A DNA stretch of 64,000 bases. Source: an uncultured archaeon (GTDB lineage Archaea > Aenigmatarchaeota > Aenigmatarchaeia > QMZP01 > QMZT01). Below are positions 8,641-27,283 of this stretch, in pieces. The stretch's first letter is position 1; every line of letters starts with the position of its first letter. The position numbers were made by a program, and so were the translations under genes. The stretch spans positions 1 to 64,000 of the forward strand of contig CAYYKJ010000007.1 of assembly GCA_964441265.1 (NCBI GenBank), read 5' to 3'. Below the pieces are notes generated by a model. The model ran no database searches and had not been told where the DNA came from. It saw nothing but the letters and a program-made list of their open reading frames with translations.

Positions 8641-8795
8641 GGTTTACCATGAAGACATACCGTGCGCGCATCTGCAATGAAGGTCAGGTTGAAGGCCTTA
8701 CCAGACAAGCTGAGAAGTAGTGCATGGCCGTCGTCATTCCACGAGGGCAAAACCGGCATCTGATATTCTTCTTTTCGTCCGAAAAGCAGATAAGG

Positions 8796-10196: not shown

Positions 10197-10402
10197 GGGC
10201 CGGTAGATCAACGGTGCGTTTCAAAAGGGAGCTGACATTTCACCCCACAACGAAACGTTTCGGGGTGTTGTGGGTCAATCGCTCCCGCTGCGTTAAAGAT
10301 CGCTGCCCTTGCAAGGCAGAGGCTTCGGGTTCAAAGCGACCCTTTTGCTCAAAGAAGAAACAGCTGATGCTTGCGGGGGTCGGGAAAATCCCGACCGGTC
10401 CA
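10197..10402 (+). tRNA. tRNA-Ala(TGC) in the 16S-23S spacer with two non-canonical introns (D-loop and T-loop)
   Basis: Acceptor GGGCCGG/CCGGTCC with G3:U70 and A73. D-stem GATC/GATC. Anticodon arm CTGCC-CTTGCAA-GGCAG. T-stem TCGGG/CCCGA with the T-loop TTCAAA...T split by an insertion. Confidence 0.6.
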
Positions 10403-12005
10403 TGAGAAATTGCATGGCGGGTCCGCCGGAGAGCAAATCCGGGCCGGGCTGGCCGCATTCGCGCACGTAAATATTTAAATATATAGTAACATATAATACA
10501 TGCTCTCTGCAGCCGTGCAGGGCTGGGAGGGCCAAATCGAATGCATTGGTTGACTATCAGACTGTTCAGAGTCGGTCACGCCCCGGTGACAGCGGGCTTG
10601 GTTGGCAGGCAGATAGTCGAGGCGACTCGGTATCTATTTTCTGGACAGTTTCGGGAATACCATGCTTGTAATGTTGAAATGAGGCTCGTTACTGCAAATA
10701 ACGGGCTGATTTGAGAAGGATGATGACCACTTTGACGGTCACGTGAGCACCGGCATAGCAGGGCGCGCCTCGGCGGGCCGTGTTACCGGCTGCGATGAAA
10801 GAGTGAACACCATTAGAGTCCTTTGATGATTCCATAGGCGAGTTGTCCCGACCACAAGGGTCTGTTACGCTGCATGGTGGCTGACTTGGCTCGGAAAACG
10901 AAGAGGGACGTGGCAAGCTGCGAAAAGCCCGGGGTAGGTGCAAGCAGCCTTTGAACCCGGGATTTCCTAATGGGACTTCCCAGCATTTGCTATTCGCAAT
11001 AGCGAAGGTTGACGGCCTGGATTGAAACATCTTATTAGGGCCAGGAAGAGAAAGCAATCGCGATTCCCTGAGTAAAGGCGATCGAAAGGGGAACAGGACA
11101 AACCGAATCCCCTATTGAGAGATAGGGGACATGTGGGGTTTGGACCTGCGCTCGGCCCAACTTCCCAACCCGAAGTGACCTGGAACGGTTCACGACAAAG
11201 GGTGAGAGTCCCGTAGGGATAAGGAAGAGGGTTGATATCAGGTATCCGGAGTACCGTTGGTTGGAAATCCAGCGGGAATGCGGGAGACACTAACTCCCAA
11301 TCCTAAACATAATCCGAGTCCGATAGCGTACTAGTACGGTGACGGAAAGTCGAAAAGCATCCTTAACAGGAGCTGAAAAGAGCCTAAAGCCATGTAGTTA
11401 TAGGTTGGTAAGGCACATGCTTGCATGTGTTTTGCCGTCCGTTTTGAAACACGCGGCAAGGAGTTTATCTCCGTGGCGAGGATAACGTGATGGTATCCAT
11501 AGCGAAAGCGAGAACCCCGCAGCTTGCGAGGGGGTCAGGTGTGAAAGCGCCTACAGTCACGGGGATAATACCTGAAGCCGGTCGATCTAGCCCTGGGCAG
11601 GGTGAAGTCTAGCGAAAGCTGGATGGAGGCCCGTTACCGTTGCTGAGATTCAAATCGCTCAGGTGACCTGGGGCTAGGAGTGAAAATGGGGTGACGGCCA
11701 GAATTCATCTGTTTAGGCCGTCGTTCCTTCAACGCTAATCGAGATCGGCAATAGCTGGTTCCTCTCTAAATGTATCTGAGTACAGCCTGGCCGGAGGTAG
11801 AATATGGGGTAAAGATACTGATTGCGTAACCAAGGATCGAAAGGTCCAGTTGTGCTGTCAAACTCAGAATCCATGTTCGCCGTAGAAGGCTGGAGTGGGG
11901 GTGCCGGGGTAAGCTCGGTATCCGAAAGGGAAAGAACCCAGACTGAAGTTAAGGTCCCTAAATGTTGTCTAATCGAAGAAAAGCGTCATCAACCATAAAC
12001 AATAG

Positions 12006-12037
<32 letters not shown>

Positions 12038-12404
12038 CGAGCGAAGGCTTGGATTTATCGGATTAAGCCTTCATTCGAAAGAGAGAGTGTGTAATAACTC
12101 ACCTATCTAGGTTGATGGCCTTGAAAATGGACGGGACTAAGGCAACTACCGATACTTTGGATCACGAAAGTGATAGCGTAGGGAGGTGTCCTGCTGGGGC
12201 AGAAGTTCTTCCGTAAGGGGGAATGGACCTTGCAGGAATAAGAATCTTGCTGATAGTAGCAGCACTAGTGGAGTGAGAATCTCCACCACCTAAAGGGCTA
12301 GGGTTCCTCAGCAACGATTAAAAGCTTGACGCTGAATGGTCAGCGTCGGTTTGTCGAATCAGCTGAGGGTTAGTCGGTCCTAAGGCGTCTCCTAACCGGA
12401 GGAT

Positions 12405-12436
<32 letters not shown>

Positions 12437-13090
12437 CATGGAAGTACGTGCGGCGACGCAAGCCCGGTTCCAGACTTTTCGGGATAGGCTGACCATTTCG
12501 ATGGTTAACCCGTTAAGCCTGCGGAGTACCGTAATGGTGAGAAGCAGGTGAAGCGGGGAATAGCCCGTGTATTCGGGTTTGGCTGAATCCTGGAAACCGT
12601 GAAAATGGAAACGGGAAGGATCTTTCATGTCCGTACCGAGAACCGTTACTGGTGACCCTTGCTGAAAAGGTTAAGGTGTATTAGGTTAAATTACCCTAGG
12701 GAATTCGGCAAATTAGCCCCGAATCTTTGGTATGAGGGGTGCCTAGTCCCTTGGCTCAGCCAAGAAGACTAGGTCGCAGTGACAAGGGGGGTCCGACTGT
12801 TTAACAAATGGGAAGCGCAGATTTAATGATTATCTGTTCTTTTCGTGCTTCAGTCGGAAATCGAACCCTCGGACAGGCCAAGTTAGTATGAAAGGACGTT
12901 TTTACAAATTTCAAACTTTCCGTTCTTCCCAGTTAAAAAACATAGGGGGCTGCTAGTCGGAAACGATTTGTATAGCTCCTGAGGCCTGCCCAGTGCGAGT
13001 GTGTCAAGCTGGACTTCAATCCAGTGAAGCCCTCGTAAACGGCGGCGGTAACTCTGACCGTTGACTTAGGCGGTCACAAAATTTGGCTAT

Positions 13091-13738
13091 ATGCGGGAAC
13101 TCCATAGTATTCCGGGTCCTGAGAAAGGAAAAATCCCGGAAACGATGACGGATAATCCGCAGGAAACTGTTTGCTTCATGGGGGTGGTTACCATGAAGAA
13201 AGTCGAACAAGGGTTTAGTAAACTCTTGAGAAAAAAGCGTTACCTGAGATTTTATATCTTGGGTTTCGTTGATGCCGAAGGTTGTTTTAGTGTGTCATTG
13301 AAGCAACAGAAAACGACGAGATTCGGCTGGGTATTGGATCCGTTATTCCAGGTAACTCAACACAAAAATAACAGGATTGTACTCGAAAAGATAAAAGGAG
13401 AATTGGGTTGCGGAAGGATAATTGATAAACCCGGTCAAAAAGATACACTGATATATTTGGTTGATAACCGAAGACAACTGAACGAGAAAATAATTCCCTT
13501 CTTTGAAAAGTACAGGCTTGTTTCGAAGGACAGTGATTTCCAGAAATTCAAGAGAATCGTCAGAGGACTTGAAAAAAAGGAACACGGCGAATTGGAATCT
13601 TTCTTGAAACTGATCAAAAAAGCCTTCGAAATGAATCTGGGAGGGAAACAAAGAAGATACAAACTCGAAGAAGTCTTGAAAAAATTGGGAAGCAGACAGA
13701 ATCCCCAGAGGCCATACGCCAGACACTCAAGTGAGTGA
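13091..13738 (+). CDS. LAGLIDADG homing endonuclease (single-motif) in 23S intron
   Basis: ILGFVDAEGCF motif; the ORF lies inside a 23S insertion. The true start may be an internal Met. Confidence 0.75.
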   Translation: MRELHSIPGPEKGKIPETMTDNPQETVCFMGVVTMKKVEQGFSKLLRKKRYLRFYILGFVDAEGCFSVSLKQQKTTRFGWVLDPLFQVTQHKNNRIVLEKIKGELGCGRIIDKPGQKDTLIYLVDNRRQLNEKIIPFFEKYRLVSKDSDFQKFKRIVRGLEKKEHGELESFLKLIKKAFEMNLGGKQRRYKLEEVLKKLGSRQNPQRPYARHSSE

Positions 13739-14398
13739 AGATATGGTCCGACTCTTACAGTAATGTAAGTAAGTTGCTTAAGGTAGCGTAGTCCCTTGCC
13801 GATTAATTGTCGGCCTGCATCAAGGGCTTAACGAGATCCCCGCTGTCCTGGGGTAATGCCTAGTGAAATTAATTGTCCAGTGCATATTCTGGAGACCTTC
13901 AGTGGGACGAGAAGACCCCATTGAGCTTTACTGCAGTCTACTGCTGTGATATGATAATGGTTGCACAGTGTAGGTGGGAGCGTCGAACCCGCGTCTTTGG
14001 GTGCGGGGAATGCGACAATGTAACACCACCCTACCGTTCTCATATTGCTTATCCTTCGGGAGACACCAGTTGATGGGCAGTTTGGCTGGGGCGGTACGCC
14101 TCTGATAAGGGATCAGAGGTGCCCTAAGTTCGGCTCATTCCGGTCAGAAATCGGAATTAGAGTGCAAGAGCAAAAGCCGGACTGATAGGATTCTGCAAAG
14201 TGAGGAATCCTAACGCGAAAGCGTGGTCTAGCGATCCGCTGTGTCTTTATTAGATGAAAGCCAGCTCTGACAGAAAAGTTACCATGGGGATAATCAACCA
14301 GAGAGTTGATAGGTTTTGAAAGCCATGTCAGGGGATATCTTTTCCTTTCTGTATTTTGAGACGAAAGTAAGATAAATCCCATTAATGAAATAATAAGC

Positions 14399-14953
14399 AT
14401 GGATTTGATTGAAAAGGGATTCGTTTTCGGTGCCAGCGAAGACGGAACTGTTTACCATAGACCTTCAAGAAATCAATATAACATAGAAATCGAGCAGAAA
14501 GTTCAAAAATGGCTTGAGATTGTGAAGAAAGCAGTGCAGAAAACATATAACAAAAACGTGAGGATAGCAAGGACTTCTAAAGGTTATTTCAGGTTGCTTG
14601 TTTATTCCAAAAAACTGCATAATGATCTCAAATCTTTCAGAAAGGATTATTCGAAAATCCTAACCGAAAACAAAGACTTCCAGACCGGCTTCCTTCGCGG
14701 ATTTTTTGATGCGGAGGGAACGGTCCACAACAAAAGATATTCGATTAGGGTGGCATCGAAGAATAAGCAAACAATCCTTGTAATCAAGAAAATGCTTAAT
14801 AAATTCAATATTAAAACCGGTAAAATTCATGCCGATAAGACGGCATATGTTTTGCCTCTGTACGGAAAAGATAATCTAGAAAGATTCGATTCCGTTGTCA
14901 GTTTTAGACATGAAGAAAAGAAAGAAAGACTTTCAAAACTTCTCTCTGGTTGA
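14399..14953 (+). CDS. LAGLIDADG homing endonuclease (single-motif) in 23S intron
   Basis: LRGFFDAEGTV motif; inserted after GGGGATAA in 23S domain V. Confidence 0.75.
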   Translation: MDLIEKGFVFGASEDGTVYHRPSRNQYNIEIEQKVQKWLEIVKKAVQKTYNKNVRIARTSKGYFRLLVYSKKLHNDLKSFRKDYSKILTENKDFQTGFLRGFFDAEGTVHNKRYSIRVASKNKQTILVIKKMLNKFNIKTGKIHADKTAYVLPLYGKDNLERFDSVVSFRHEEKKERLSKLLSG

Positions 14954-15525
14954 TCCCGAAAATGGAGTCGTGACGCGTGAGAGTCCATAGCGTCATAACT
15001 TGGTTAACTTTCTAAAAGGTCTTTGATTTCCAAGTTAGACATGGATATATCGACCGCGTTCGTTGCTTCTCCGCCGTCGGCTCGGCTCTTCCTGGACGTG
15101 CAGCAGCGTCCAAGGGTGGGGGTGTTCACCCATCAAAGAGCCACGTTAGCTGGGTTAAATACGGTGCGAGCCAGTATGGTCTATATCTACTGAAGGTGTC
15201 GGGAACCTGAGGGGAAGAAGCACTCAGTACGAAAGGAACAGTGCATCGTGGCCTCTGGTGTACCAGTTGTGTATACATCGCTGGGTAGCTATGCCATTGT
15301 GGATAAGGGCTGAAAGCATCTAAGCTCGAAGCCGCTCCCGAAAATAGGTTCCCACTCCTCAAACTGATTGGCAACAACCGGTGCGAGGGAAAGGATCCGG
15401 TATACGACCGGGTTGATAGAATCGGGGTGTAAGTACCGAGGCAACGAGGTATTCAGCCTACGATCACTAATACTCCAAATGGCCCTGGTTAAAGGGACAA
15501 CTCGCCGCTATTATTTTTTTATCAT

Positions 15526-15786
15526 TTGCCCCGCTTAGCCACAGCTTTAATCTATTTAAGTTTCCGGCAAGAAATATTCATCATGATAGAGCTAAAAAAG
15601 AACCAGTGGTTCTCGATCGTTCTGTTCCTGATGGTGATATACGAGGTGATCTTCGGGTTCACCATGAACATGACCGGTTCCACCTACTTCCAGATGAACC
15701 AGCTGTACATATGGGTATTGTTCCTCATAGTGGTGACCCTCACCCTCTCGTTCTACTTCTGGAGCAGGGAATCGAGACTTTACTAG
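15526..15786 (+). CDS. hypothetical small membrane protein
   Basis: Two hydrophobic helices; weak support. Confidence 0.3.
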   Translation: MPRLATALIYLSFRQEIFIMIELKKNQWFSIVLFLMVIYEVIFGFTMNMTGSTYFQMNQLYIWVLFLIVVTLTLSFYFWSRESRLY

Positions 15787-15857
15787 ATCCCTTCTTTTCT
15801 CTTTTATTTCACTGGCAAAGGTAGTTCTGACTATGCCCCTTTGTATTTTTGTGGAAT

Positions 15858-16115
15858 TCAACAATTACTGTAGGAAAAAATATCTGAATGACCGCATTCA
15901 GGGCATTTCAATTTTTTGATCTTTTCAAATCCCCCGTGGAGACGGAATAATTTCTCTTTGTATTTCGCACCACATTCGCCGCAATTGACAACGGCTACCG
16001 GTTTTCCTATATCTAATGGATTATAAGAGTGCCTTATTATGATATTTGATTTACTTTTAGTTGTGCTGATATCATCTATGTGTATATTTTTCATCTTTGT
16101 TTTTATGTCAGACAT
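15858..16115 (-). CDS. zinc-ribbon protein
   Basis: CGECG…CPECG pair of CxxC motifs. Confidence 0.45.
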   Translation of the reverse strand: MSDIKTKMKNIHIDDISTTKSKSNIIIRHSYNPLDIGKPVAVVNCGECGAKYKEKLFRLHGGFEKIKKLKCPECGHSDIFSYSNC

Positions 16116-16149
16116 GTTTTATGATAAAATTTGTTGTCATTTAAGTCTT

Positions 16150-16440
16150 TATCCTAGAAAAATTCAGTTTGCCCGCTGACCGAAAAACAGTCATGGGAAG
16201 GCGCGGATGCCCGGTTTAGGGGGTTGCTTATGGGGTGAACATGCCAGCAATCTTCAGGCGGACCTCGAAAGTCCGTTGCCGGGCATCCGCTAACCCCGGA
16301 GGTTCGTTGTGACCCCCGGAGCTTCCAAGTGATGATTGTATGGAGTTTAAATATGTATTGCGAAGCCCTGGTATGGACGAGTGATTCATAAGGTATTTAA
16401 ACCCCTTCCCGGAGGCCGGTTTTTTCCAGAACCGCAGGTT
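16150..16440. ncRNA. candidate structured RNA (GC-rich, long complementary arms; identity unresolved)
   Basis: GCGGATGCCCGG…CCGGGCATCCGC inverted repeat; GGGGG/CCCC pairings; GAAA-loop hairpin GGACCUCGAAAGUCC. The overlapping minus-strand ORF looks non-coding. Confidence 0.3.
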
Positions 16441-16458
16441 CATAAGATTTAAAAGAAT

Positions 16459-17133
16459 TTGGAGTTTAGAGTAATTATGCACGTGATATTTTCCCCCATG
16501 TGGTTCATGGGCATAGATTCGATATTCGAAATCATGTCAGCGATAATCGCCATACTGGTGGGGTTCTATTCGTTCAAGATATACAGAGCCACCCGCAGGA
16601 AGGAATTCAAGTTCCTTTTCCTCGCCTTTGCGCTGCTGTTCTTCGCCTTCATAGCGAGATCGGTGACCGACCTGGCGGCGTATAATCTTTTCCTGGAGAG
16701 GATTCCGACCATATCCAGGATAGTCAGCGTCCAGTACGTGTATTTCGTCGGAATATACTTCTACCAGATGCTCACTCTTTTCGCCTATCTTACCCTGGCG
16801 GTGCTTTCTCTGAAGGTGAGGAGCAGGAGGACGATCTCGCTCCTTATCCTGTTTGTGGTCTTCTCGTCATTCACCACGCTGATAAACTATTCAATGTTCC
16901 ACCTGGTCTCGGCGGTGCTCTTGTCCTACGTGGTGCTGCATTTCTATGAGAACTGCAGGGAGAGGTCATGCACGAATTCACATCTTGTGTTCGTCTCCTT
17001 CCTGCTGATACTCTGCTCCCAGGTGGTTTTCATAATGATATTCCATTCGTTGTTCTACGTCTTCGGGCACTTCCTGCAGTTCGCGGGATATCTCGTGCTT
17101 CTGATAAATCTTTTGCTGGTGCATAGGTCATGA
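16459..17133 (+). CDS. polytopic membrane protein, unknown function
   Basis: About 6-7 hydrophobic helices. Its stop overlaps the start of the next gene. Confidence 0.5.
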   Translation: MEFRVIMHVIFSPMWFMGIDSIFEIMSAIIAILVGFYSFKIYRATRRKEFKFLFLAFALLFFAFIARSVTDLAAYNLFLERIPTISRIVSVQYVYFVGIYFYQMLTLFAYLTLAVLSLKVRSRRTISLLILFVVFSSFTTLINYSMFHLVSAVLLSYVVLHFYENCRERSCTNSHLVFVSFLLILCSQVVFIMIFHSLFYVFGHFLQFAGYLVLLINLLLVHRS

Positions 17134-17405
17134 AAAAGAGGAGGGACAAGGGGGAGATAGTTTACGACATGCTGTCTGCCTTGTGGGAGAGCAGGAGAGG
17201 CCTCAAGCCGACCCACCTCATATACAAGTCCAACATATCCTACGTCCGTCTCAAGAGGCACGTTAAGGAACTACTGGAAAAGGGAATGGTCAAAGAGGGG
17301 ACCGGAGAGGGCGGACACAAGGTCTATAAGATCACAGATAAGGGAATCAAATTCATCAGGGAATACGACAGGATGAAGAGGTTCATGGATTCGTTCGGAC
17401 TTTGA
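17130..17405 (+). CDS. small winged-helix DNA-binding protein
   Basis: 91 aa and basic, with a wHTH-like pattern. Translationally coupled to the upstream membrane protein (ATGA overlap). Confidence 0.5.
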   Translation: MKKRRDKGEIVYDMLSALWESRRGLKPTHLIYKSNISYVRLKRHVKELLEKGMVKEGTGEGGHKVYKITDKGIKFIREYDRMKRFMDSFGL

Positions 17406-17744
17406 TCTATTAATGCTTTTTGATGAATTGAGTTTGCGGGAAGAACTAAATGCGCGGCTGGAATTTATTGCATGTGGGATTCTCGCGCGTTTTTAAGCGA
17501 TTGCGATACATTTCCGATGTTAAAAAATCATGGCCAATCTGTATAGTCAAGTTATTTGGAACGTTTAAGCTGATGTACACCTCATTCGGGCCAAGGCCAT
17601 GTTCTTCCCCTCCTGGCGACTTGAAGAAATATTCACCCATTTTCGTCATTGTATGTTATTGGTTGTTTGGTTTTTTATTCGCTTCATATTAACTCGCCTT
17701 TTGGATACAGATACTTTTATAAATCTTTTTATAGAAGGGATAAT

Positions 17745-18115
17745 CAAGTTGAGCTGGGTAGATAGCTCCCCGGCCGTTCAGAGGGCTGTTCAGCCCCGAA
17801 CAGAGGCCGGGAGGAAGCTCCATTCACCCATACAAGGTAATGCCGGAAGGCATGGGCCGGGAGGCCCCCACAGGACACAGAAAAGACCGGCGCGGCAGAG
17901 CCATGATGCTTACGGTAGAACGGTTAAACCTGTTCTGATCCGGGCTGAGCGGGGAGGCCGATGCCGGGTGAAATAATCCGTGGTGCCGGGTGCAAGCCGG
18001 CTAAAAGCGGGCCGGACAGCAGGTCGTTCAACCGTCTAGACCGACTGGCCAGAGGCGCTCAGAAAAATGCTATCACCCCGTCCAGGGTTAGATGTTTGGT
18101 CCCTGCGGGATGACA
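17745..18115. ncRNA. candidate structured RNA (GC-rich island in AT-rich intergenic; RNase P RNA- or SRP RNA-like motifs but not assignable)
   Basis: Nested stems (GAGCT…AGCTC, CCGGCC…GGCCGG, CTGTTC…GAACAG) and an AUGCC-GGAA-GGCAU tetraloop hairpin. Motifs GGAAGCUCCAU, ACAGAAAAGACCGGC and GGGUGAAAU are present. No plausible ORF. Confidence 0.35.
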
Positions 18116-18176
18116 AAAAATGGGCTATTCCCAGCACAACTATTTCCTTTTTAAGATTTGATTTCGAGTTTTTATC

Positions 18177-19430
18177 ATGCAGCCGGAATACGGTTTCCAG
18201 GACTTCGAGATTGAACTGGAGGACATCCAGATAACCAAGACCAAGACCTTCGTCAGGGGTTTTGAGCCCACGGAAGGGGGATCGATCGCGTCCTCCCCGA
18301 AATTCTGGAAGGGTCTTGTTCATTTCGGGTCTTTCGACACGAACTGCTATGCCCTGACCCCTGACGGGGAGGAGGTTTGGAGGACCAAGCTGGGAGGCAT
18401 GGTCACCTGGGTGAATCCGGCTTTCTGGAACGGTTTCGTGATGTACGGGGCGTACGACAACAAATTCTACGCCCTCGACTCCATGACGGGGAAGATAATC
18501 TGGGAATTCCAGACAGGCGGTAAGATCGCCATGCAGGGATACGTTTCCGGCGACGTCGTTTACGTGGGGAGTTCGGACGGTTATGTCTATGCTCTGAGGA
18601 CATCTGACGGAAAGGAGCTCTGGAGGTTCAGGACAGGCGGGAAGGTGGCCACTCCACCGAGCGTCTACGGAGGCAGGGTATATTTCGGATCCTTCGACCA
18701 TAACATGTACTGCCTCTCCGAGGAGGGGAAGGAACTATGGCGGTTCAAGACCGGGGACGAGCTCCTGGCCGACAATCCCTATGAGGTTTACGACGGTGTC
18801 CTTTATTTCTCTTCCCTGGACTCCTACCTGTACGCGGTGGATGCGGAGACCGGCCGGCTCAAGTGGAAGTTCAAGACGGGGAAATACGGAAACACCTGCG
18901 CTCCCGTGCTCCACAGGGACAGGATATATCACGGCTGCAGGGACGGTATAGTCTACTGCCTTACCAGGGATGGGAAGGAGCTCTGGAGGTTCCAGGCGGA
19001 GAACCTGGTCGTCCAGGTGGGTATACACCGCGACAGGCTCTATTTCGGCGACGAGAGCGGGAACTTCTACTGCCTTTCCCTGGAAGGCAAGGAATTATGG
19101 AGATTCAAGACATCCGGGGCCGTGTTCACCGATCCATTATTCCACGAAGACCGGGTATGCATAGGATCTTTCGACTGCCACCTCTACTGCCTCTCCCTGG
19201 AAGGAAAGGAGCTCTGGAGGTTCCAGACCAGTTCGACGACCATGTCGGACATAGGGGAGCCCTACGAGATGTACGAGGCCGTGGTCTCCCAGGAGTCCGT
19301 GGACGAGGAAGGGTCCGGTGAAGAGGATAGCTATTCCGTCAACCTCTCCGGCGGAGGAATGGACGAATACGACGTGAAGAGCCAGTACGTGACCAAATCG
19401 GAATACGCCACCAAGAGCGAATACGCCTGA
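18177..19430 (+). CDS. PQQ-like beta-propeller repeat protein (paralog family; C-terminal YVTKSEYATKSEYA tail)
   Basis: Repeated 'YCL/YAL(D)..G.ELWRF.T' blades, an acidic N-terminus QPEYGFQDFEIE and a TKSEY-repeat C-terminus. Confidence 0.75.
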   Translation: MQPEYGFQDFEIELEDIQITKTKTFVRGFEPTEGGSIASSPKFWKGLVHFGSFDTNCYALTPDGEEVWRTKLGGMVTWVNPAFWNGFVMYGAYDNKFYALDSMTGKIIWEFQTGGKIAMQGYVSGDVVYVGSSDGYVYALRTSDGKELWRFRTGGKVATPPSVYGGRVYFGSFDHNMYCLSEEGKELWRFKTGDELLADNPYEVYDGVLYFSSLDSYLYAVDAETGRLKWKFKTGKYGNTCAPVLHRDRIYHGCRDGIVYCLTRDGKELWRFQAENLVVQVGIHRDRLYFGDESGNFYCLSLEGKELWRFKTSGAVFTDPLFHEDRVCIGSFDCHLYCLSLEGKELWRFQTSSTTMSDIGEPYEMYEAVVSQESVDEEGSGEEDSYSVNLSGGGMDEYDVKSQYVTKSEYATKSEYA

Positions 19431-19479
19431 AAAACGCTTTTAAACCTTCCCTGTTCTAAATATTATACGAGTGATCACG

Positions 19480-19641
19480 ATGGCCAAGAAGAACAAGACA
19501 TTCATGCCCCAGAGCACGGCGGGGCTCATCAGGTATTTCGAGCAGTCAGAGGAATCGATCAAGCTCAGGCCGGAGCACATCGTGGGCATATGCGTCGTGA
19601 TAATAATCGTTGAGATTATGCTCAAGTTCGTGTTCATTTGA
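19480..19641 (+). CDS. secG: preprotein translocase subunit Sec61beta/SecG (53 aa; absent from ORF track)
   Basis: MAKKNKTFMPQSTAGLIRYFEQSEESIKLRPEHIVGICVVIIIVEIMLKFVFI; the GLxRYF(E/D) motif plus a C-terminal TM. Confidence 0.7.
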   Translation: MAKKNKTFMPQSTAGLIRYFEQSEESIKLRPEHIVGICVVIIIVEIMLKFVFI

Positions 19642-19732
19642 TATTCACTATCTTTGAGTCATTTCTATAAAAAATATTTTTTTATAAGGACGTTCATATC
19701 TTTTTAAATCCTTTTGCGGCCAAGATATTATC

Positions 19733-20386
19733 ATGAGTTTGCCCGGATTCCGTAAGATAGAAGACGGGATAACCATGGTGAGCCTTTCCGGCATTGATTC
19801 CAACATCTATCTGATCGGGAAGGACACCCTGGTCGACACGGGCACTGGTTTCAACTTCGTCCGGCTTTATGATCTCTTCAAGAAGATGGGAGAGGATTTC
19901 GACAACATAAAGACCATAATAAACACCCACATGCATTTCGATCACGTGGGCGGCAACAAGTTCTTCGACAATGCGAAGGTGCTCATACACAGCCTTGATT
20001 CCGCCCCTCTGGAGAAGGGGGACGACGAGCACACCTGCGCGGGATTTTTCAACGGGGAGATGAAGCCTGTGGAGGTGCATCAGAAGCTCAAGGACGGGGA
20101 AAGGGTCGCCGGATTACGGGTGATCCATACTCCCGGGCACACCCCGGGCTCCGTATGCCTCTACGACGAGAAGAAGAAGATACTGTTCTCTGGGGACACC
20201 ATCTTCGCGGAGGGCGTGGGCAGGACGGATCTCCCGGGCGGCAGCGAGCAGGACCTTGAGAAGTCGCTTGAAAAACTCTCGGAACTGAAGACAGAGAAGA
20301 TACTCTGCGGGCATGGGGAGCCCATACTAAAAGACGGCAAGGACGTTCTCAAGAAGGTATTCGAGAACGTCTCGGACATACATTAG
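19733..20386 (+). CDS. metallo-beta-lactamase fold hydrolase
   Basis: HMHFDHVGG motif, downstream His/Asp ligands, IHTPGHTPGS. Confidence 0.8.
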   Translation: MSLPGFRKIEDGITMVSLSGIDSNIYLIGKDTLVDTGTGFNFVRLYDLFKKMGEDFDNIKTIINTHMHFDHVGGNKFFDNAKVLIHSLDSAPLEKGDDEHTCAGFFNGEMKPVEVHQKLKDGERVAGLRVIHTPGHTPGSVCLYDEKKKILFSGDTIFAEGVGRTDLPGGSEQDLEKSLEKLSELKTEKILCGHGEPILKDGKDVLKKVFENVSDIH

Positions 20387-20856
20387 ACTTCCCTGAACCC
20401 GAGGACCTTTCCGTCCTTCTGCCTGATCTCCAGATGGCTTATGGTTATGGGCGGGTTCTCGAGGAATTTCTCCACCATCCACACGTCCTGGGGGACCACT
20501 TTTTCATCCTTCAGTTCGTTTATCCAGAACCATTTTAGCTGCCCTTCTTTCGTTCCCCTCACTCTATTCTCTTCGGTTTCCGCGTGGGCGAGGAACACCA
20601 CCCCGGAAAAGACCACGCTCTTGTCCTCCTTCAGCCTCTCGTGTATTACGGACCTTATACCTTCTATCTTGGTTTTCAGTCCGGTTTCCTCCCTGATCTC
20701 CCTGGCCGCCGCCTCCTCCACGCTCTCGTCAGACTCCATCTTTCCCCCTATTAATGCCCAGTATCCCTTGTAGGGAGGGGAATTCCTATTTACGAGCAGG
20801 ATCTGGTCACCGCAGGTCACCATGCATATGACCATGGGAACCGGTCTTTTTTCCAT
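20383..20856 (-). CDS. NUDIX hydrolase
   Basis: Nudix box GGKMESDESVEEAAAREIREETGL. Confidence 0.8.
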   Translation of the reverse strand: MEKRPVPMVICMVTCGDQILLVNRNSPPYKGYWALIGGKMESDESVEEAAAREIREETGLKTKIEGIRSVIHERLKEDKSVVFSGVVFLAHAETEENRVRGTKEGQLKWFWINELKDEKVVPQDVWMVEKFLENPPITISHLEIRQKDGKVLGFREV

Positions 20857-20907
20857 GATAATTCATTGTCACTTTCCCTTAAAAAATGGGATTAGAAAAA
20901 GAATGAA

Positions 20908-21147
20908 TGGGCCCGACGGGAATTCCACGTTGCCTTTTTGGCAGGCGTAGGTTTTGTGACCTGCGCCAGCGTCCGTAAAAGCTACGCTTCGAACCCGCGA
21001 CACCCGGATATCTCCAGCGAAAGAAGCGCCGTTGCGCCTCTTGCCTTGTCATCCCCGTTAAGGTCATCATATCCGATAAGAGTCCGGTGCTCTAAATGTC
21101 CGGAAGTCCGCTTATGCGGAAAACCCGCCAGACTGAGCTACGGGCCC
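20908..21147 (-). tRNA. tRNA-Lys(CTT) with three introns (D-loop, anticodon loop 37/38, T-loop)
   Basis: Minus strand: GGGCCCG-TA-GCTC-AGTCTGG[intron]TAGAGC-A-CCGGA-CTCTTA[intron]A-TCCGG-GTGTC-GCGGG-TTCGAA[intron]T-CCCGT-CGGGCCC-A. The seven acceptor pairs are complementary. Confidence 0.55.
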
Positions 21148-21256
21148 ATTATTAGGGAGACAGCTTGTTTCAATGGGTTGGAGCTGTCATGCTCTGTGAG
21201 TTATTAATATAGATAAGGGAATTTATTTAAATTTGCAAAATCAGGAAAAACGGATT

Positions 21257-21454
21257 TTATTTCGTCCTTTTGTCCCGTGTGACGGTCTTCCACTGCCATT
21301 TGGCCTTCTTCATCCTGGCAGATTTGCCGAATCCGCAGGCTGCGCACACGCCCTTCGTGGCGTGGAATGCATGGCGGCCGCACCTACGGCAGAGTACGTG
21401 GGTCTTCCCCTGATGTTTGCCGAAGCTGGGTGTTCCTTTTGACATGAGAATCAT
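21257..21454 (-). CDS. rpl37e: ribosomal protein L37e
   Basis: [25 protein letters not shown]…CAACG zinc ribbon. Confidence 0.85.
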
Positions 21455-21462
21455 TCCTCATA

Positions 21463-21696
21463 TTATTTTGCGGGCGAAATCAGAACTATGTTGTCTCCTC
21501 TCACGAGGACGGTTCCTAGCTTGACGTTGCTCTCCCCGTCGTTAGACTGGACCTCTGCCTCCTCGAGCCATATGTTCAGGTGCGAATCAAAGGCCTTCAG
21601 GATGCCCGTGATTTTGTCCCTGTTCTTGACCTGTATTATTATCCTCTTGTTTTCGGAGCTTCCAAGAACGTCCAATGGTCTTTGCTGCATTTTCAA
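21463..21696 (-). CDS. Sm-like archaeal protein (LSm)
   Basis: Sm1/Sm2 pattern (PLDVL…GILKAFDSHLNIWL…VRGDNIVLI), adjacent to L37e as in many archaea. Confidence 0.8.
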   Translation of the reverse strand: MKMQQRPLDVLGSSENKRIIIQVKNRDKITGILKAFDSHLNIWLEEAEVQSNDGESNVKLGTVLVRGDNIVLISPAK

Positions 21697-21809
21697 ACCT
21701 CCTGTAAATCAGCTAACAGTGAATACACTCTATTTGATTCATTTATTTAAAAGCATATATTTATAAGTATTTACGGTTTTATAGTGTAATAATACCAATA
21801 TTCAGCGGT

Positions 21810-22205
21810 GTGAAAATGACCAAGTGGCACAGGAAATCCAAGAGATCCCTGACCGGGAGAAGGGTGAGGCATTCCAGGAAGAAGAAGAAATTCGAGAAGG
21901 GAAACGTGTTTCTGGAGACCAGGATAGGCAAGAGAAGCGTGAAGGTCCAGAAGACAATAGGCGGAAACAAAAAATTAAAGGTCCTGTCCGTTGAGAGGAT
22001 CAACGTGGCGGACCCCAAGAAGGGGACGATAAAGAGCGTAAAGGTCGAGTCCGTCGAGAAGAACCCCGCCAATCCGCATTACGTCCGAAGGAACGTGATC
22101 ACCAAGGGAGCGGTGGTCAAGACCGAACTGGGATCGGCCAGAGTGACCTCCAAGCCCGGACAGCACGGAATCGTGAACGCCGTACTAGCCGAGGAAAAGA
22201 AGTGA
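21810..22205 (+). CDS. rps8e: ribosomal protein S8e
   Basis: HRKSKRSLTGRR…TKGAVVKTELGSARVTSKPGQHGIVNAVLAE. Confidence 0.85.
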   Translation: MKMTKWHRKSKRSLTGRRVRHSRKKKKFEKGNVFLETRIGKRSVKVQKTIGGNKKLKVLSVERINVADPKKGTIKSVKVESVEKNPANPHYVRRNVITKGAVVKTELGSARVTSKPGQHGIVNAVLAEEKK

Positions 22206-22236
22206 ATCCCGTTACACGTTCCGTTTTAGAATCTTA

Positions 22237-22611
22237 TTGTCATATTCAACTTCTATGGGAAATTTATACGGAGAAATAGCGGATAAGCTTAGTGTTTGCG
22301 TGGGTGATTGGAATGAATATCCGTTACTTGAAGGGGATTCCCCTCAGGAGGGAGGCGTTAATGGGATTTTCCAGGAAATCGACGGTCCTTATTCGGAGAA
22401 GATGCCTGTCGTAGCAGCGGCAGCGGATAAGTTCGGTCTGGGATCGGGAGAAGTTCACGAACTCATTAAAATGACTATGAATGATCATTTCAGTAAGAAC
22501 AAAACCAGCAAGAAATCGATAGAACTTTCTTATCTCACCTGGTGCGAGATTTTTCGGATGGAGCCCGGTAAGGGTTACCTGAATGAATTGCTGAAATTGT
22601 CCAAAAAATAG
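22237..22611 (+). CDS. hypothetical protein
   Basis: ORF only; codon usage is plausible. Confidence 0.35.
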   Translation: MSYSTSMGNLYGEIADKLSVCVGDWNEYPLLEGDSPQEGGVNGIFQEIDGPYSEKMPVVAAAADKFGLGSGEVHELIKMTMNDHFSKNKTSKKSIELSYLTWCEIFRMEPGKGYLNELLKLSKK

Positions 22612-22612
22612 C

Positions 22613-22930
22613 CTATTTCAGCTCGATGTCGATCTTGACGCCCTCGGGGATCGGTATCCTGACCACCTGTCTGAGGGCGCGCTCGTTGGCCCCGATGTCC
22701 ACGATCCTCTTGTGTATGCGCATCTCGTACCTGTCGTAAGTGGCGTTTCCGTGCCCCGTCCCGTCGCCGCAGGGGGTCTTCATGGTGGTGACCTTGAGCT
22801 TCTTTGTCGGGAGGGGTATCGGTCCCCGGGTGGACACGCCGTATTTCTTGGCGATCTCCCTGATATCTTCGCATATCTGCTCGAGTTCCTTTATGTCCCT
22901 TCCGGCAATCTTGATGCGGGCATATTCCAT
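22613..22930 (-). CDS. rps10: ribosomal protein S10 (uS10)
   Basis: KIAGRDIKELEQ…GVSTRGPIPLPTK…YEMRIHKRIVDI. Confidence 0.85.
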   Translation of the reverse strand: MEYARIKIAGRDIKELEQICEDIREIAKKYGVSTRGPIPLPTKKLKVTTMKTPCGDGTGHGNATYDRYEMRIHKRIVDIGANERALRQVVRIPIPEGVKIDIELK

Positions 22931-22959
22931 ATTATCACGTTGACTCCGTTCTTAAATAA

Positions 22960-23442
22960 CTACCTCTTTGACCTCTGCTTGTATCTTCTTGCTCCCTGGG
23001 ATGATCTGGGGGGCTTGTGGGGCTCGGTCCTGCGGGGATCGTACGCGAGCATGTTGCGGTCGTAATCCATCAACTTTTCCCTGATACCCGATCCGAATAT
23101 CTCCACCAGGGCCTTGCCTATTGCCTGCCTGGCAGCGGATGCCTGGCCCATCACTCCTCCTCCCTTGACGTTTATGATGAAATCGTATTTCTTCCAGTCC
23201 GCACCGGACACTATGAGGGGCTCCATCACCCTCAGCCTGTATACCTCATTGGTCTCGTTTTCGATGAGATTGTAATTTATCTTTATCTTTCCGGAGCCCT
23301 TCCTGACCACCGCACGGGCTACGGATCTCTTCCTCTTCCCCGTGCTGTGGAGGGGCAGCTTCTTCGCTTTTGGGGTCTCCTTTTTCTTCCCTGCCTTCTC
23401 TTCCTTTGAAGCCTTTTTCTTTTCTGTCATGATATCACTCAA
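22960..23442 (-). CDS. rps9: ribosomal protein S9 (uS9)
   Basis: GKRKRSVARAVV…VKGGGVMGQASAARQAIGKAL…RYKQRSKR C-terminus. Confidence 0.85.
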   Translation of the reverse strand: MSDIMTEKKKASKEEKAGKKKETPKAKKLPLHSTGKRKRSVARAVVRKGSGKIKINYNLIENETNEVYRLRVMEPLIVSGADWKKYDFIINVKGGGVMGQASAARQAIGKALVEIFGSGIREKLMDYDRNMLAYDPRRTEPHKPPRSSQGARRYKQRSKR

Positions 23443-23899
23443 GTTTCGCCCCCAGCCCCCTGCTTATCTTTTCCAGTGTGACATATTTGTGGACGAGTTT
23501 GTTCTTGGTCTTTTCTATGGTCTCGAAATCACTGTCTTTGAATTCTTCGGGGACGGACATAAATACCCTCAGGCGCCTCATGGCGTTCCTGCCCTTCGGC
23601 TCCCTGCGGGGAACCATGCCTCTGACGATCCTTCTCAGGATGTCCTCGGGCCTTTTGGGGTAGAATGGCCCGTGATAAGGATCTCCTCTTCTCCTCTTCT
23701 TCTTGTAGGTCTCGAGTATGACTTCCGGTTTCCCGGATATTACCGCCTTCTCGGCGTTTGCTATGTATACCCTCTTTCCCCCCATCAGCATCTTGGCGGC
23801 GCAGGAGGCGACCCTGCCGGCTATACAGTTATCGGCGTTTATGAACATCTCCCCGGAATTCCCTGTCTTCTTCTCCCTTTCAGCGCTCTTTCCTGGCAT
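23435..23899 (-). CDS. rpl13: ribosomal protein L13 (uL13)
   Basis: INADNCIAGRVAS…GPFYPKRPEDILRRIVRGMVP. Confidence 0.85.
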   Translation of the reverse strand: MPGKSAEREKKTGNSGEMFINADNCIAGRVASCAAKMLMGGKRVYIANAEKAVISGKPEVILETYKKKRRRGDPYHGPFYPKRPEDILRRIVRGMVPRREPKGRNAMRRLRVFMSVPEEFKDSDFETIEKTKNKLVHKYVTLEKISRGLGAKLE

Positions 23900-23900
23900 T

Positions 23901-24251
23901 TTATCCCATTATCCTTGCCTTCGGCGTCTTTTCGGCGAATTCCTCTATGCTCATGCATTTTCCCCCGGCCTTTCCGATTTTCTCCCTCGCGGAACCGGAG
24001 AATTTCAGGGCATACACGTTGACTGCCTTGGATATGTCCCCGTTCCCCAGTACGGTTCCCGGGACCACTATGTTCTCCTTGGGCATGGAGAACCTCTCGA
24101 TCCTGTCCAGGTTCACCTCGTATCCGACCCTGGATGGCCTGTTTATCCCCCTGGCTATGGCCATGAATATGGGCTTCTTCTCCTTCCTAGACCTTTGCCT
24201 GAGGTTTTCTATCATTTCCTTCGTTGCCGGGTTTTTGTCCCTCGCTTTCAT
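23901..24251 (-). CDS. rpl18e: ribosomal protein L18e
   Basis: VNLDRIERF…VVPGTVLGNG…ALKFSGSAREKIGKAGG. Confidence 0.8.
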   Translation of the reverse strand: MKARDKNPATKEMIENLRQRSRKEKKPIFMAIARGINRPSRVGYEVNLDRIERFSMPKENIVVPGTVLGNGDISKAVNVYALKFSGSAREKIGKAGGKCMSIEEFAEKTPKARIMG

Positions 24252-24375
24252 GTTTTCACCATGAATCGGTATAAAGTGTATAGTCTATTAAGTTTATAAA
24301 TATTTAAATAAGAGCACACGGAGCGGGTATCGGTCGCTGCGGAGGGCCTTGCTTTTGGGGGACAGAGCCGTTTCC

Positions 24376-25155
24376 TTATATTTTCCCCCTCTCAGGCGCC
24401 TCCGGGCAGTCGCAGCCCCTCTTTTCGGGTATATTGGGAATCAGAACCTTCAGGAGCCTTTCCAGGTTGTCCGAATTCCCCTTCATGGTCTCCAGAACGT
24501 CGGAGACCTCCACCGCCTTCTCTTTGTAAACGTCATAATCCGTTATCATGGCGATGACGGAGTAGCAGATTCCCCTTTCCCTGGCCAGAACCGCCTCGGG
24601 TATGCAGGTCATCCCTATTATGTCGGCGAATTTCCTGAACATGCGCGATTCCGCCCTGGTGGAGAATCTGGGGCCCGGGACCCGGAGATACGTCCCCTTA
24701 TCGTGGGATTTTATTCCCACCTCTTCCGCCGACCTGATCATGGATTCCCTGATTTCAGGACAGAAAGGGTCTGCAAAGGCTATGTGGCGCACGTCCGGCC
24801 CGTCGTAGAAGGTGGTCACTTCCCTCCCCATGTCTATCAGCTGGTCGGGGAAAACGAAATCCCCCGGGTGGAGGTCATCCCTGAGCGAGCCGACCGCAGC
24901 GGTGCCTATGATCCTTTCGACGCCCATGTCCTCCATGGCCCGGACGTTCGCCCGGAAATTGATCGCGTGAGGGGGTATGGTATGCCCGCTCCCGTGCCTG
25001 AACAGGAATGCGACCCTTTTCCCGTGAAATTTTCCCACGATTATTTCGCTGGAGGGCTTCCCGTACCTGTTTTCGGGGCTCGTTTTCTCCGGTTTTTCCA
25101 GCATCCCTTCGGAATAAATGCCGGTTCCCCCTATGATTCCGATATCAGCTTTCAT
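24376..25155 (-). CDS. mtnP: S-methyl-5'-thioadenosine phosphorylase (PNP family)
   Basis: IGIIGGTG…FLFRHGSGH…GMTCIPEAVLARERGICYSVIAMITDYD. Confidence 0.8.
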   Translation of the reverse strand: MKADIGIIGGTGIYSEGMLEKPEKTSPENRYGKPSSEIIVGKFHGKRVAFLFRHGSGHTIPPHAINFRANVRAMEDMGVERIIGTAAVGSLRDDLHPGDFVFPDQLIDMGREVTTFYDGPDVRHIAFADPFCPEIRESMIRSAEEVGIKSHDKGTYLRVPGPRFSTRAESRMFRKFADIIGMTCIPEAVLARERGICYSVIAMITDYDVYKEKAVEVSDVLETMKGNSDNLERLLKVLIPNIPEKRGCDCPEAPERGKI

Positions 25156-25233
25156 GTCGGCCGCACCGCCCTTAAATAGATTATTATATTTATAAATTAT
25201 ATATTAACTGAATCGTTAAGCAGGAGGGCCGGA

Positions 25234-26274
25234 ATGGTAAAGGAAAAACCAAAAGAGAACCTGATGGTACTGTGCGTAGACAGGGACAATGACATAGGCG
25301 AAAAACTGGGCATCTCCGGACCCGTGACGGGCAGGAACAGCATAGTCAAGGTGGCCACAGACCTCAGCATGAAGGATCCTGAGGAGAGCGATGCAAACGC
25401 CCTTTTCGGGGCGGTGAAGCTTCTGGACGAACTCAAGGACAAATACAGCACCGAGGTATCGGTGATTACCGGTTCTAAGAGCAGGGGCGTGGATTCCGAC
25501 AGGGAGGTCGCCAGGCAGCTTGACCATGTCCTCTCCAAGAGACCCAGCGATTTCGTTATACTCGTTTCAGACGGCAAGGACGACGAGTACGTGATACCCA
25601 TAATACAGTCCAAGGTCCCGATACTCTCGGTAAAGAGGATAATAGTCAGGCAGTCGGAGCAGCTCGAATCATCCTACTACAAGATAAAGGACTTTCTGAA
25701 CGAGACCATGGAAAACCCCAAGTTTTCCAGGATGCTTTTCGGCATACCCGCGGTGGTCCTGCTGGTCTGGGCCCTTTTCGGATACGAGGGATGGCGCCTG
25801 ATACTGGGCATAGTCGGTGCTTACCTCTTCATAAAGGGCTTCAAGCTGGAGGATTACGTAGTGGGCATTTTCGACGAGCTGAAAAACTCATTCACCAAGC
25901 GTAGATTCGCATTCTTCGTGTATATAGTTTCATTCGCAATAGTCGCACTTGCCCTTTACAGGGGTTACGTATCGGTAATGGAATTCGCGAACATAGGGCT
26001 TTTCGAGAGCATGGCTGCCTTCCTGATAGCTTCGGTATATTTTTTCTGGATAGCCGGGACAATAGCCTGGCTGGGCAACAACATCTCCCTGGGAACTAAA
26101 TCCTCTTCCAGAATGGCCTCGGTTCCGATTTTCGGGCTCGCGGTTGCCATAGTGCTCTACAACGTTTCGGAGATAATACTCAATCCGGAGATATCATCCT
26201 TCAATTTCATAATCTCCATAGCGTTGGGCTTCGTGATAGCCTTCATAGCGCTTTCCCTGGAAGCCGTGGACTGA
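25234..26274 (+). CDS. DUF373-family archaeal membrane protein
   Basis: N-terminal LCVDRDNDIG motif plus a C-terminal polytopic region. Confidence 0.6.
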   Translation: MVKEKPKENLMVLCVDRDNDIGEKLGISGPVTGRNSIVKVATDLSMKDPEESDANALFGAVKLLDELKDKYSTEVSVITGSKSRGVDSDREVARQLDHVLSKRPSDFVILVSDGKDDEYVIPIIQSKVPILSVKRIIVRQSEQLESSYYKIKDFLNETMENPKFSRMLFGIPAVVLLVWALFGYEGWRLILGIVGAYLFIKGFKLEDYVVGIFDELKNSFTKRRFAFFVYIVSFAIVALALYRGYVSVMEFANIGLFESMAAFLIASVYFFWIAGTIAWLGNNISLGTKSSSRMASVPIFGLAVAIVLYNVSEIILNPEISSFNFIISIALGFVIAFIALSLEAVD

Positions 26275-26275
26275 T

Positions 26276-27283
26276 TCATTCCAGGACCTTTTCCGCGGTC
26301 TTATCTTTGTCAGGTTCCTTTTTCTCCGGGGGCTTTTCCTGCTTTGCATTCCCCTTTTCATACCCTTCCTTCCCTTGCAGCTTCCCCTGGAGAAGGACAA
26401 TGTTCCTGTTGCATTCGTCTTTTATCTTCCTGAACGCCTCCCTGCTCATCTGCTTTTTCTCATGTTTCTCGGCCGCTATCTCCTTCGCCCTTGACAGTTC
26501 CCCTATCTTCTTCTTTATCTCTTCCTCGCTCATGTCCTGCTTTATCTTCTTGAGCTCCATTGCCTCCAGGGCGTCCTCCATGTCCCTCTGGGTCTTCTCC
26601 TTTTCCAGCTGCATCTCTGCTTCCTTTTCTGCCCTCTCTTTTTCCAGCTTCGCGAACTCCTCTTCCCTGCTTTCCTCCACTTTATCATCTCCCCTTTCAG
26701 ATGGCTTCGGTATGTCCTTCGGGAAATCCCATTCAACCGAAAACGAAACCATTTCAATGCCGAACCCGGTGAGTATCCCCCCCGTTTTCTCTTCCATCTC
26801 CTTTCCGATTTTCTCCCTCAGTGATCCGTTCCTGCTGACTTCGAGCAGGCCGAGACCGCTCAGATGGGGCGCTATCACGCCTGAAATCAGCTCCATGTAT
26901 ATCTCATTCCAGAGATCGTCCTCGTAGAGCATTTCCTTGGATTTCATCAGGTTTTCCCTGAATTCATCCACGTCCTGAACCCTGAATACTATTTCGACAT
27001 CCAGGGAGAGCTTCTGGACATCCCTGGTCCTTATTTTCCTTATCTTCTTCTCCAGCTTCCTTTCTGAGGCGTCTACGAAGAGCGCATGGGTGAAATCCGA
27101 GTTTATCGGACCGAAGGAATATGTTTTCCCTCCATCCAGTATGTTCTGGAGTATGCCGTTCTTCTCCAGAACGACCGATATGCCTTCGGCCACCTTTATA
27201 TCCTTCCTCAGAAAGCCCGGAAATTCCTCCTTGTGGAACTTCTGGGCGAGAACGTTCCCTTTACGTTTCCATTCCCTGAACAT
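26276..27283 (-). CDS. SPFH/band-7-like domain protein with long E/K-rich coiled-coil tail
   Basis: The N-terminal ~180 aa fit the SPFH pattern (VDASERKLE…VEIVFRVQDVDEF). The C-terminal ~150 aa are a charged heptad-like repeat. Confidence 0.5.
   Translation of the reverse strand: MFREWKRKGNVLAQKFHKEEFPGFLRKDIKVAEGISVVLEKNGILQNILDGGKTYSFGPINSDFTHALFVDASERKLEKKIRKIRTRDVQKLSLDVEIVFRVQDVDEFRENLMKSKEMLYEDDLWNEIYMELISGVIAPHLSGLGLLEVSRNGSLREKIGKEMEEKTGGILTGFGIEMVSFSVEWDFPKDIPKPSERGDDKVEESREEEFAKLEKERAEKEAEMQLEKEKTQRDMEDALEAMELKKIKQDMSEEEIKKKIGELSRAKEIAAEKHEKKQMSREAFRKIKDECNRNIVLLQGKLQGKEGYEKGNAKQEKPPEKKEPDKDKTAEKVLE

Follow-up and report, generated by a model that had tools for sequence, protein, structure and literature searches.

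In the Thermoproteales, up to three introns per tRNA gene are well documented (PMC4390854, PMC4033280, PMC8450103), and tRNA-Glu(UUC) of Pyrobaculum calidifontis and tRNA-Pro(UGG) of P. islandicum carry three each according to Sugahara et al. (2007/2008), as cited in the same three papers. Related introns at the same position of different tRNAs in this order were read as transposition by Fujishima et al. (2010), in the account given in PMC4033280. Within DPANN, many tRNA genes are disrupted in several lineages whose EndAs are of the L3-loop alpha4 type (Kaneta et al., 2018, PMC5829648), and in ARMAN-2 (Candidatus Micrarchaeum acidiphilum) introns occupy T-loop position 59/60 of tRNA-Cys(GCA) and tRNA-Pro(GGG), the former being cleaved in vitro by the organism's own epsilon2 three-unit endonuclease (Fujishima et al., 2011, PMC3239211). 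One tRNA with introns in all three arms has been described from a red alga (PMC9602550). A search of the accessible literature found no description of tRNA introns in the Aenigmarchaeota.

Here we followed up a tRNA-Lys(CUU) gene in a 64-kb stretch of DNA, called the window throughout. To judge by the sequence, its host is an intron-rich archaeon of the Aenigmarchaeota (DPANN); the EF-2 encoded in the window is 85% identical to proteins of Candidatus Aenigmarchaeota archaeon MAGs and 100% identical to one NCBI protein. The locus is very probably a functional gene whose precursor of about 240 nt contains three bulge-helix-bulge (BHB) introns spliced by EndA. A sequence-only reading had placed a tRNA-Lys with all four arms on the minus strand at 20908-21147 and interrupted it in the D-loop, at 37/38 and at T-loop 59/60; the coordinates are exact, and BHB geometry and intron-less alleles bear out the number and sites of the introns. 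Its parts, with the flanking signals, are the following.

20908..21147, minus strand: complete tRNA-Lys(CUU) gene, 240 nt, four exons and three introns, ending at discriminator A73.
21128..21147, minus strand: exon 1, 20 nt; acceptor 5' strand, U8 A9, D-stem 5' strand, D-loop A14-G19 (GGGCCCGUAGCUCAGUCUGG), the same in the orthologues L005 and L087.
21096..21127, minus strand: intron 1, 32 nt; D-loop, between G19 and U20, relaxed BHB.
21077..21095, minus strand: exon 2, 19 nt; U20 U20a A21, D-stem 3' strand, A26, anticodon stem 5' strand, C32 U33 C34 U35 U36 A37.
21010..21076, minus strand: intron 2, 67 nt; canonical position 37/38, hBH-type motif, with an AUGAUGA box and a 9-bp hairpin inside.
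20988..21009, minus strand: exon 3, 22 nt; A38, anticodon stem 3' strand, variable loop GUGUC, T-stem 5' strand, T-loop U54-A59.
20922..20987, minus strand: intron 3, 66 nt; T-loop 59/60, strict hBHBh'.
20908..20921, minus strand: exon 4, 14 nt; U60, T-stem 3' strand, acceptor 3' strand, A73.
21201..21232, minus strand: probable promoter, TTTAAATAAATTCCCTTATCTATATTAATAA, an AT-rich block lying 54-85 nt ahead of the mature 5' end.
20881..20903, minus strand: T-rich tract (runs T5 and T6) directly past the discriminator, probably serving as an archaeal terminator.

Read on the minus strand, the exons are GGGCCCG-UA-GCUC-AGUCUGG / UUAGAGC-A-CCGGA-CUCUUA / A-UCCGG-GUGUC-GCGGG-UUCGAA / U-CCCGU-CGGGCCC-A. 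The product spliced in silico was called tRNA-Lys(ctt) by ARAGORN, both as a 74-nt and as a 75-nt version, and carries U8, A14, G18G19, A21, the G15:C48 pair, U33, A37, the T-loop UUCGAAU and A73; CCA is absent from the encoded 3' end. As all exons follow one another colinearly on a single strand, within 240 nt, this is not a split or permuted tRNA gene. The unspliced gene gave no ARAGORN match under default settings, with introns of up to 300 nt or with lowered thresholds, when only low-score false calls elsewhere appeared, and Rfam gave no tRNA match anywhere in the window at gathering or E-value thresholds (E<=5-10). Since neither tool sees the unspliced gene, with or without the intron options of ARAGORN, there is no alternative continuous tRNA fold, the competing outcome that the earlier reading had itself raised. 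That reading also took the open reading frames 20879-21070 (minus strand) and 20938-21207 (plus strand) for artefacts, and we agree, because both are short and cross introns that are altogether different in sequence and length in orthologues; 20938-21207 has no Pfam match. Upstream, the block TTTAAATAAATTCCCTTATCTATATTAATAA recurs nearly identically before the L005 and L087 orthologues although the spacers diverge, the leader between block and tRNA varying from about 25 to 53 nt. From what is known of archaeal TATA/BRE elements, the block is a probable promoter, and its position 54-85 nt upstream implies a leader that RNase P would remove. A NUDIX gene neighbours the locus; looking it up by exact match gave no entry.

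Each intron was scored against the 3-4-3 BHB geometry, in which an outer helix h, a 3-nt bulge, a 4-bp central helix H, a second 3-nt bulge and an inner helix h' follow each other and the cut falls after the second base of each bulge (marked by a caret).

Intron 1, D-loop 19/20, 32 nt: H of G15-U17a with GGAC, 4/4 pairs; h' 3 bp; bulges GG^C and AU^U; relaxed HBh'.
Intron 2, 37/38, 67 nt: H of C32-U35 (CUCU/GGAG), 4/4 pairs; h the 5-bp anticodon stem; h' none; bulges UA^U and AU^A; hBH.
Intron 3, T-loop 59/60, 66 nt: H of U54-G57 with UGGA, 4/4 pairs; h the 5-bp T stem; h' 3 bp; bulges AA^G and AU^U; strict hBHBh'.

A complete central helix at all three junctions was obtained in none of 20,000 intron shuffles (0/20,000), and the precursor folds more stably than shuffled sequences (z -3.3). 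The T-loop motif is the top strict BHB of the entire tRNA-Lys precursor in the strict-BHB scan, and 59/60 scores best among six registers of this loop; its central helix is weak (U-A, U-G, C-G, G-U) and does not form spontaneously in RNAfold. The outer helix of intron 1 is irregular, with A14-U followed by the D stem offset by one base. As the strict scan demands an outer helix of at least 2 bp, it missed the D-loop junction, which was evaluated by hand. An EndA of strict specificity would be expected to struggle with the two relaxed motifs of this gene, since one of them (D-loop) has no regular outer helix and the other (37/38) no inner helix.

Orthologues of the tRNA-Lys gene were located in metagenomes and MAGs through syntenic S8e loci, S8e being oriented divergently to the tRNA, with LSm and L37e between the two. 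They are given below in order of S8e identity to the window.

Window: S8e 100%; D-loop 19/20 intron 32 nt; 37/38 67 nt; 59/60 66 nt.
L087 (GCA_016932215.1): S8e 88%; no D-arm intron; 37/38 56 nt; 59/60 37 nt.
L005: S8e 85%; no D-arm intron; 37/38 72 nt; 59/60 58 nt.
L088: S8e 71%; intron in the D stem; 37/38 65 nt; no 59/60 intron.
L006: S8e 70%; D-loop 19/20 intron 31 nt; 37/38 48 nt; no 59/60 intron.
L090: S8e 70%; no D-arm intron; 37/38 81 nt; 59/60 19 nt.
L011: S8e 61%; no D-arm intron; 37/38 36 nt; no 59/60 intron.
L015, L016 and L022: S8e 55-59%; no D-arm intron; 37/38 42 nt; 59/60 66 nt.
L046: S8e 53%; no D-arm intron; 37/38 51 nt; no 59/60 intron.
L053: S8e 53%; intron in the D stem; 37/38 intron present; a variable-loop intron instead of one at 59/60.

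The empty T-loop site of L006, L011, L046 and L088 reads TTCGAATCCCGT, which is the product predicted from BHB geometry. In L053 and L088 the tRNA-Lys introns sit at other sites, on the D-stem 3' strand around 22-24 and, in L053, also in the variable loop, so that the set of used sites shifts between sub-lineages.

The same comparison settles the D-loop junction, where the 33-nt intron implied by the sequence-only reading was one base too long. Starting exon 2 at UAGAGC would leave a mature tRNA of 74 nt, which likewise makes a valid cloverleaf, and the more distant orthologue L006 has a D-loop that is indeed one base shorter (GG joined to UAGAGC). With the 4-bp helix between G15-U17a and GGAC, however, the symmetric cut follows AU and not AUU, and consequently exon 2 begins with UUAGAGC, the intron measures 32 nt (21127..21096) and the mature tRNA 75 nt. 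L005 and L087, the two nearest orthologues, with no exon differences elsewhere, carry an uninterrupted D-loop GUCUGGUUAGAGC that fixes the junction of the window; their continuous junction sequence GGTTAGAGC and their intron-less D-loops, which read GTCTGGTTAGAGC, equal the BHB-predicted product. The 33-nt version is therefore unlikely. In the corrected form exon 1 ends in GG, the intron ends in AU and the mature D-loop is AGUCUGGUUA (10 nt). The 31-nt D-loop intron of L006 occupies the same site as that of the window and shares its 3' motif TTYCGGACA.

As a check on its T-loop assignment, the sequence-only reading had proposed to look for the 59/60 intron in other tRNA genes. A scan for an acceptor stem and T arm, with a gap permitted in the T-loop, gave four tRNA genes in the window.

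21147..20908, minus strand: tRNA-Lys(CUU), three introns.
10197-10402, plus strand: tRNA-Ala(UGC), in the 16S-23S spacer; D-loop intron of 81 nt (10216-10296), 59/60 intron of 53 nt; G3:U70.
48254-48446, plus strand: tRNA-Pro(CGG), adjoining EF-2; D-loop intron of 29 nt, 37/38 intron of 33 nt, 59/60 intron of 56 nt.
2554-2720, plus strand: tRNA-Cys(GCA); 37/38 intron of 58 nt, 59/60 intron of 38 nt; U73.

Together they hold 10 introns, and one at 59/60 is found in every gene (4/4); the tRNA-Ala T-loop intron thus has the position that had been claimed for it, the same as in tRNA-Lys and in the same BHB register, and tRNA-Pro and tRNA-Cys extend the pattern. Unspliced, all four were missed by ARAGORN and the Rfam tRNA model, and each was recognised by ARAGORN once spliced: in Lys, Ala, Pro and Cys alike, removing the introns restores a cloverleaf. 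The tRNA-Lys junctions lie in strict or relaxed BHB motifs, and those of tRNA-Lys and tRNA-Pro agree with intron-less alleles. The 59/60 motif is a strict hBHBh' in the Lys and Cys genes of the window. A contig search with S9 yielded no more than three Aenigmatarchaeota loci, all of them distant (58-61% identity) and none with an orthologous tRNA-Lys; tRNAs with 59/60 introns do occur in these loci. Across the window and related loci, two of the S9-found MAG loci included, 59/60 was the best BHB register in 11 of the 11 tRNAs with a T-loop intron. As a separate observation, the D-loop intron of tRNA-Ala encloses a second strict hBHBh' (10239-10279; H 4/4, h 6, h' 4), which would release a piece of 41 nt and could be an intron within an intron.

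The recurrence of this site may have a simple structural reason. The T arm is shaped like the anticodon arm, with a 5-bp stem and a 7-nt loop, and 59/60 is the counterpart of 37/38: in either arm the intron pairs through its 3' end with loop bases 1-4, and cleavage would lie between loop bases 6 and 7. This account is our own reading and was not found stated in the papers examined. A lineage-specific preference, as first proposed, holds in so far as the use of 59/60 is very strong here; the exclusiveness does not, since the site had already been documented in ARMAN-2 (PMC3239211), and 59/60 is a general hot spot that is not confined to one lineage.

All 75 exon bases are identical in the window, L005 and L087 (75/75), at a third-codon identity in S8e of only 0.49 (49%) between window and L005, which puts neutral sites near saturation. 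This bears directly on the idea that a former tRNA-Lys gene was disabled by three unrelated insertions and is now decaying, for which one could cite that standard tools do not recognise the unspliced gene. A pseudogene would hardly keep its exons perfectly against such divergence, nor its promoter block in L005 and L087, nor its syntenic place beside L37e, LSm and S8e in many relatives; moreover, every insertion sits in a BHB of the correct register, and all four tRNA genes of the window are built alike, including tRNA-Ala inside the rRNA operon. We regard decay as very unlikely, and the combination of three BHB junctions with exon conservation is beyond chance. Still more remote is that one or more of the inserts leave as self-splicing group I or II introns or through a nuclease other than EndA. 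Group I introns have been reported in the LSU rRNA of Aenigmarchaeota (PMC6125680), and the window seemingly has one in its 23S gene, a sub-threshold match at 13495-13770 (33 bits, E 1e-4), but the tRNA inserts of 32-67 nt are far below the size of a ribozyme core (roughly 200 nt or more), have no Rfam match (15400-27000 at E<=10; the whole window at E<=5) and each lie in a BHB.

The rRNA genes of the window are themselves long: the SSU gene (6568-9917) spans 3350 nt against 1478 nt in the Rfam model and the LSU gene (10853-15490) 4638 nt against 2987 nt, and four LAGLIDADG homing-endonuclease ORFs lie in them (8062-8640, 8724-9368, 13091-13738 and 14399-14953). The window further contains an archaeal RNase P RNA gene (17757-18131, plus strand; 74 bits against a gathering threshold of 84), which spans 375 nt against a 288-nt model and may hold an insertion, and a gene for a TruD-family tRNA pseudouridine synthase (33874-34965, plus strand).

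For a functional gene with three EndA-spliced introns, the anatomy, the BHB geometry, the junctions with their intron-less alleles and the exon conservation are what the sequences show; the enzymes, the splicing itself and the order of intron removal are what we infer, and the following course is proposed. Transcription from the conserved promoter block would yield the precursor of about 240 nt, in which an intron towards the 3' side of the loop extends each arm (at 19/20 in the D-loop, 37/38 in the anticodon loop and 59/60 in the T-loop). The 4-bp central helix would arise between four loop bases and the intron's 3' end, the arm's own stem serving as outer helix, and EndA would cut two bases into each 3-nt bulge. 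A ligase of the RtcB type would then join the four exons and probably circularise the introns, while RNase P would trim the 5' end, a 3' nuclease would trim the 3' end and CCA would be added to give the 75-nt tRNA. Neither EndA (PF01974/PF02778) nor RtcB was found among the approximately 58 window ORFs scanned with Pfam.

Presence or absence of introns changes even between close relatives. In tRNA-Pro(CGG), one genome (L085; EF-2 85%) has the D-loop intron only and another (L086; EF-2 86%) the 59/60 intron only, and their empty sites match the predicted junctions; taking tRNA-Lys and tRNA-Pro together, every intron is present in some and absent from other genomes with 85-88% identical EF-2 or S8e. 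At the same time, similar T-loop introns are found in different tRNAs. Between the 59/60 introns of L087 tRNA-Lys and L086 tRNA-Pro, 21 of 25 bases agree and changes in the stem are compensatory (z 9.5). Two blocks of the window tRNA-Ala 59/60 intron recur in the tRNA-Lys introns of L015 (z 7.8) and L022 (z 5.2), the block CAGCTNANGCTTGCGG occurring in the window tRNA-Ala intron (10361-10376), L015, L016 and L022 and in no further copies. The window tRNA-Lys T-loop intron opens with a CGTAGCTTT(T)ACG hairpin, as does the 19-nt intron of L090 (z 4.9), and CGACCCTTT is common to the window Ala and Cys introns. This relatedness across different tRNAs suggests that introns may move between tRNA genes while keeping their position. 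Mobile families of BHB introns in the Aenigmarchaeota that repeatedly enter many tRNA genes, above all at 59/60 but also at D-loop 19-21, are a possibility that we put forward tentatively, with somewhat more doubt than confidence; if true, the lineage would have the highest tRNA-intron density yet, and much of the DPANN tRNA set would be hidden from routine annotation. The T-loop introns of window and L005 tRNA-Lys show no similarity to each other. An argument for their independent gain from this dissimilarity was dropped, since unconstrained intron sequence cannot be aligned at near-saturated divergence (S8e third-codon identity 0.49) and the dissimilarity is thus uninformative.

The 37/38 introns of window, L005 and L087 tRNA-Lys are homologous: they can be aligned (z 14.8), end in an identical 17-nt 3' block and form a common hairpin with compensatory changes. 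As they remain alignable despite the saturated neutral background, this intron looks constrained. Its 5' end in the window carries UCGGAUAU, a segment of 7-8 nt complementary to the 3' splice junction that is found in 7 of the 10 orthologues and co-varies with the anticodon stem (CGGATAT/ATATCCG against CCAGATAT/ATATCTGG); L088 has a shorter 6-nt match (AGGTAT/ATACCT). The loci that bear on this are the window, L005, L087, L006, L015, L022, L090 and L088. Pairing of this segment would bury the 3' splice site and compete with the BHB. The intron of Haloferax volcanii pre-tRNA-Trp carries a box C/D guide, and the tRNA-Lys intron of the window resembles it in being a long 37/38 intron with a box-C-like AUGAUGA and a stretch that can pair with the 3' exon in a fold competing with the BHB. 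The AUGAUGA box is present in the window and L087 and absent in L005. A canonical guide, for which we asked for a C box (RUGAUGA), a D box (CUGA) and a guide of at least 10 nt ending beside D or D', is not supported for intron 2: by-eye inspection showed a 3' end of CUGG instead of CUGA and the complementary segment 5' of the C-like box, boxes and spacing fit a guide poorly, no consensus D or D' box was found, and Rfam gave no snoRNA or sRNA match (15400-27000, E<=10). The match is incomplete and a resemblance only; with the adjacent AUGAUGA, the complementary segment may give intron 2 an alternative structure, similar to a K-turn or box C/D, in competition with the BHB, and such a structure might lend the conserved intron a separate function.

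As multi-intron tRNAs and the 59/60 site are already known from Thermoproteales and ARMAN-2, the gene is not a new type of element. Noteworthy are the Aenigmarchaeota host, the local intron density, the 59/60 intron in every tRNA gene of the window and the clean presence and absence of introns among relatives. Gaps in the tRNA complement of new DPANN and Asgard genomes have been taken as a sign of disrupted genes that escaped detection (PMC5829648); since common tools missed the window genes, tRNA shortages in DPANN may be partly an artefact of intron-rich genes. Reviewers of the field call for 'snapshots' of tRNA intron insertion (PMC4033280), and this lineage offers a tractable data set outside the Thermoproteales for testing how BHB introns spread. 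Its consistent use of 59/60 would mean that the T arm can replace the anticodon arm as an endonuclease substrate.

Compared with these systems, the window resembles the Thermoproteales in having up to three BHB introns in a colinear tRNA gene at canonical and non-canonical sites, in mixing strict and relaxed motifs that standard tools under-detect, and, across its lineage, in related introns shared by different tRNAs; it differs in its DPANN instead of crenarchaeal host and in the 59/60 intron of all four genes (4/4). Non-canonical introns of Thermoproteales are mostly shorter than the introns of 32-81 nt in this lineage. Locally the window averages 2.5 introns per gene, counted on four genes, against a published record of 71 introns in 46 genes (PMC8450103). 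The red alga likewise has an intron in each of three arms of one tRNA with BHB-like junctions, but the alga, a eukaryote, has a Sen complex that is heterotetrameric, and no relation of descent connects its gene to that of the window (PMC9602550). ARMAN-2 is also a DPANN archaeon with T-loop introns exactly at 59/60 and, as in the window, with one in tRNA-Cys(GCA); its tRNA-Cys intron is a relaxed hBH of 13 nt, whereas the 59/60 introns of the window measure 38-66 nt and are strict in Lys and Cys.
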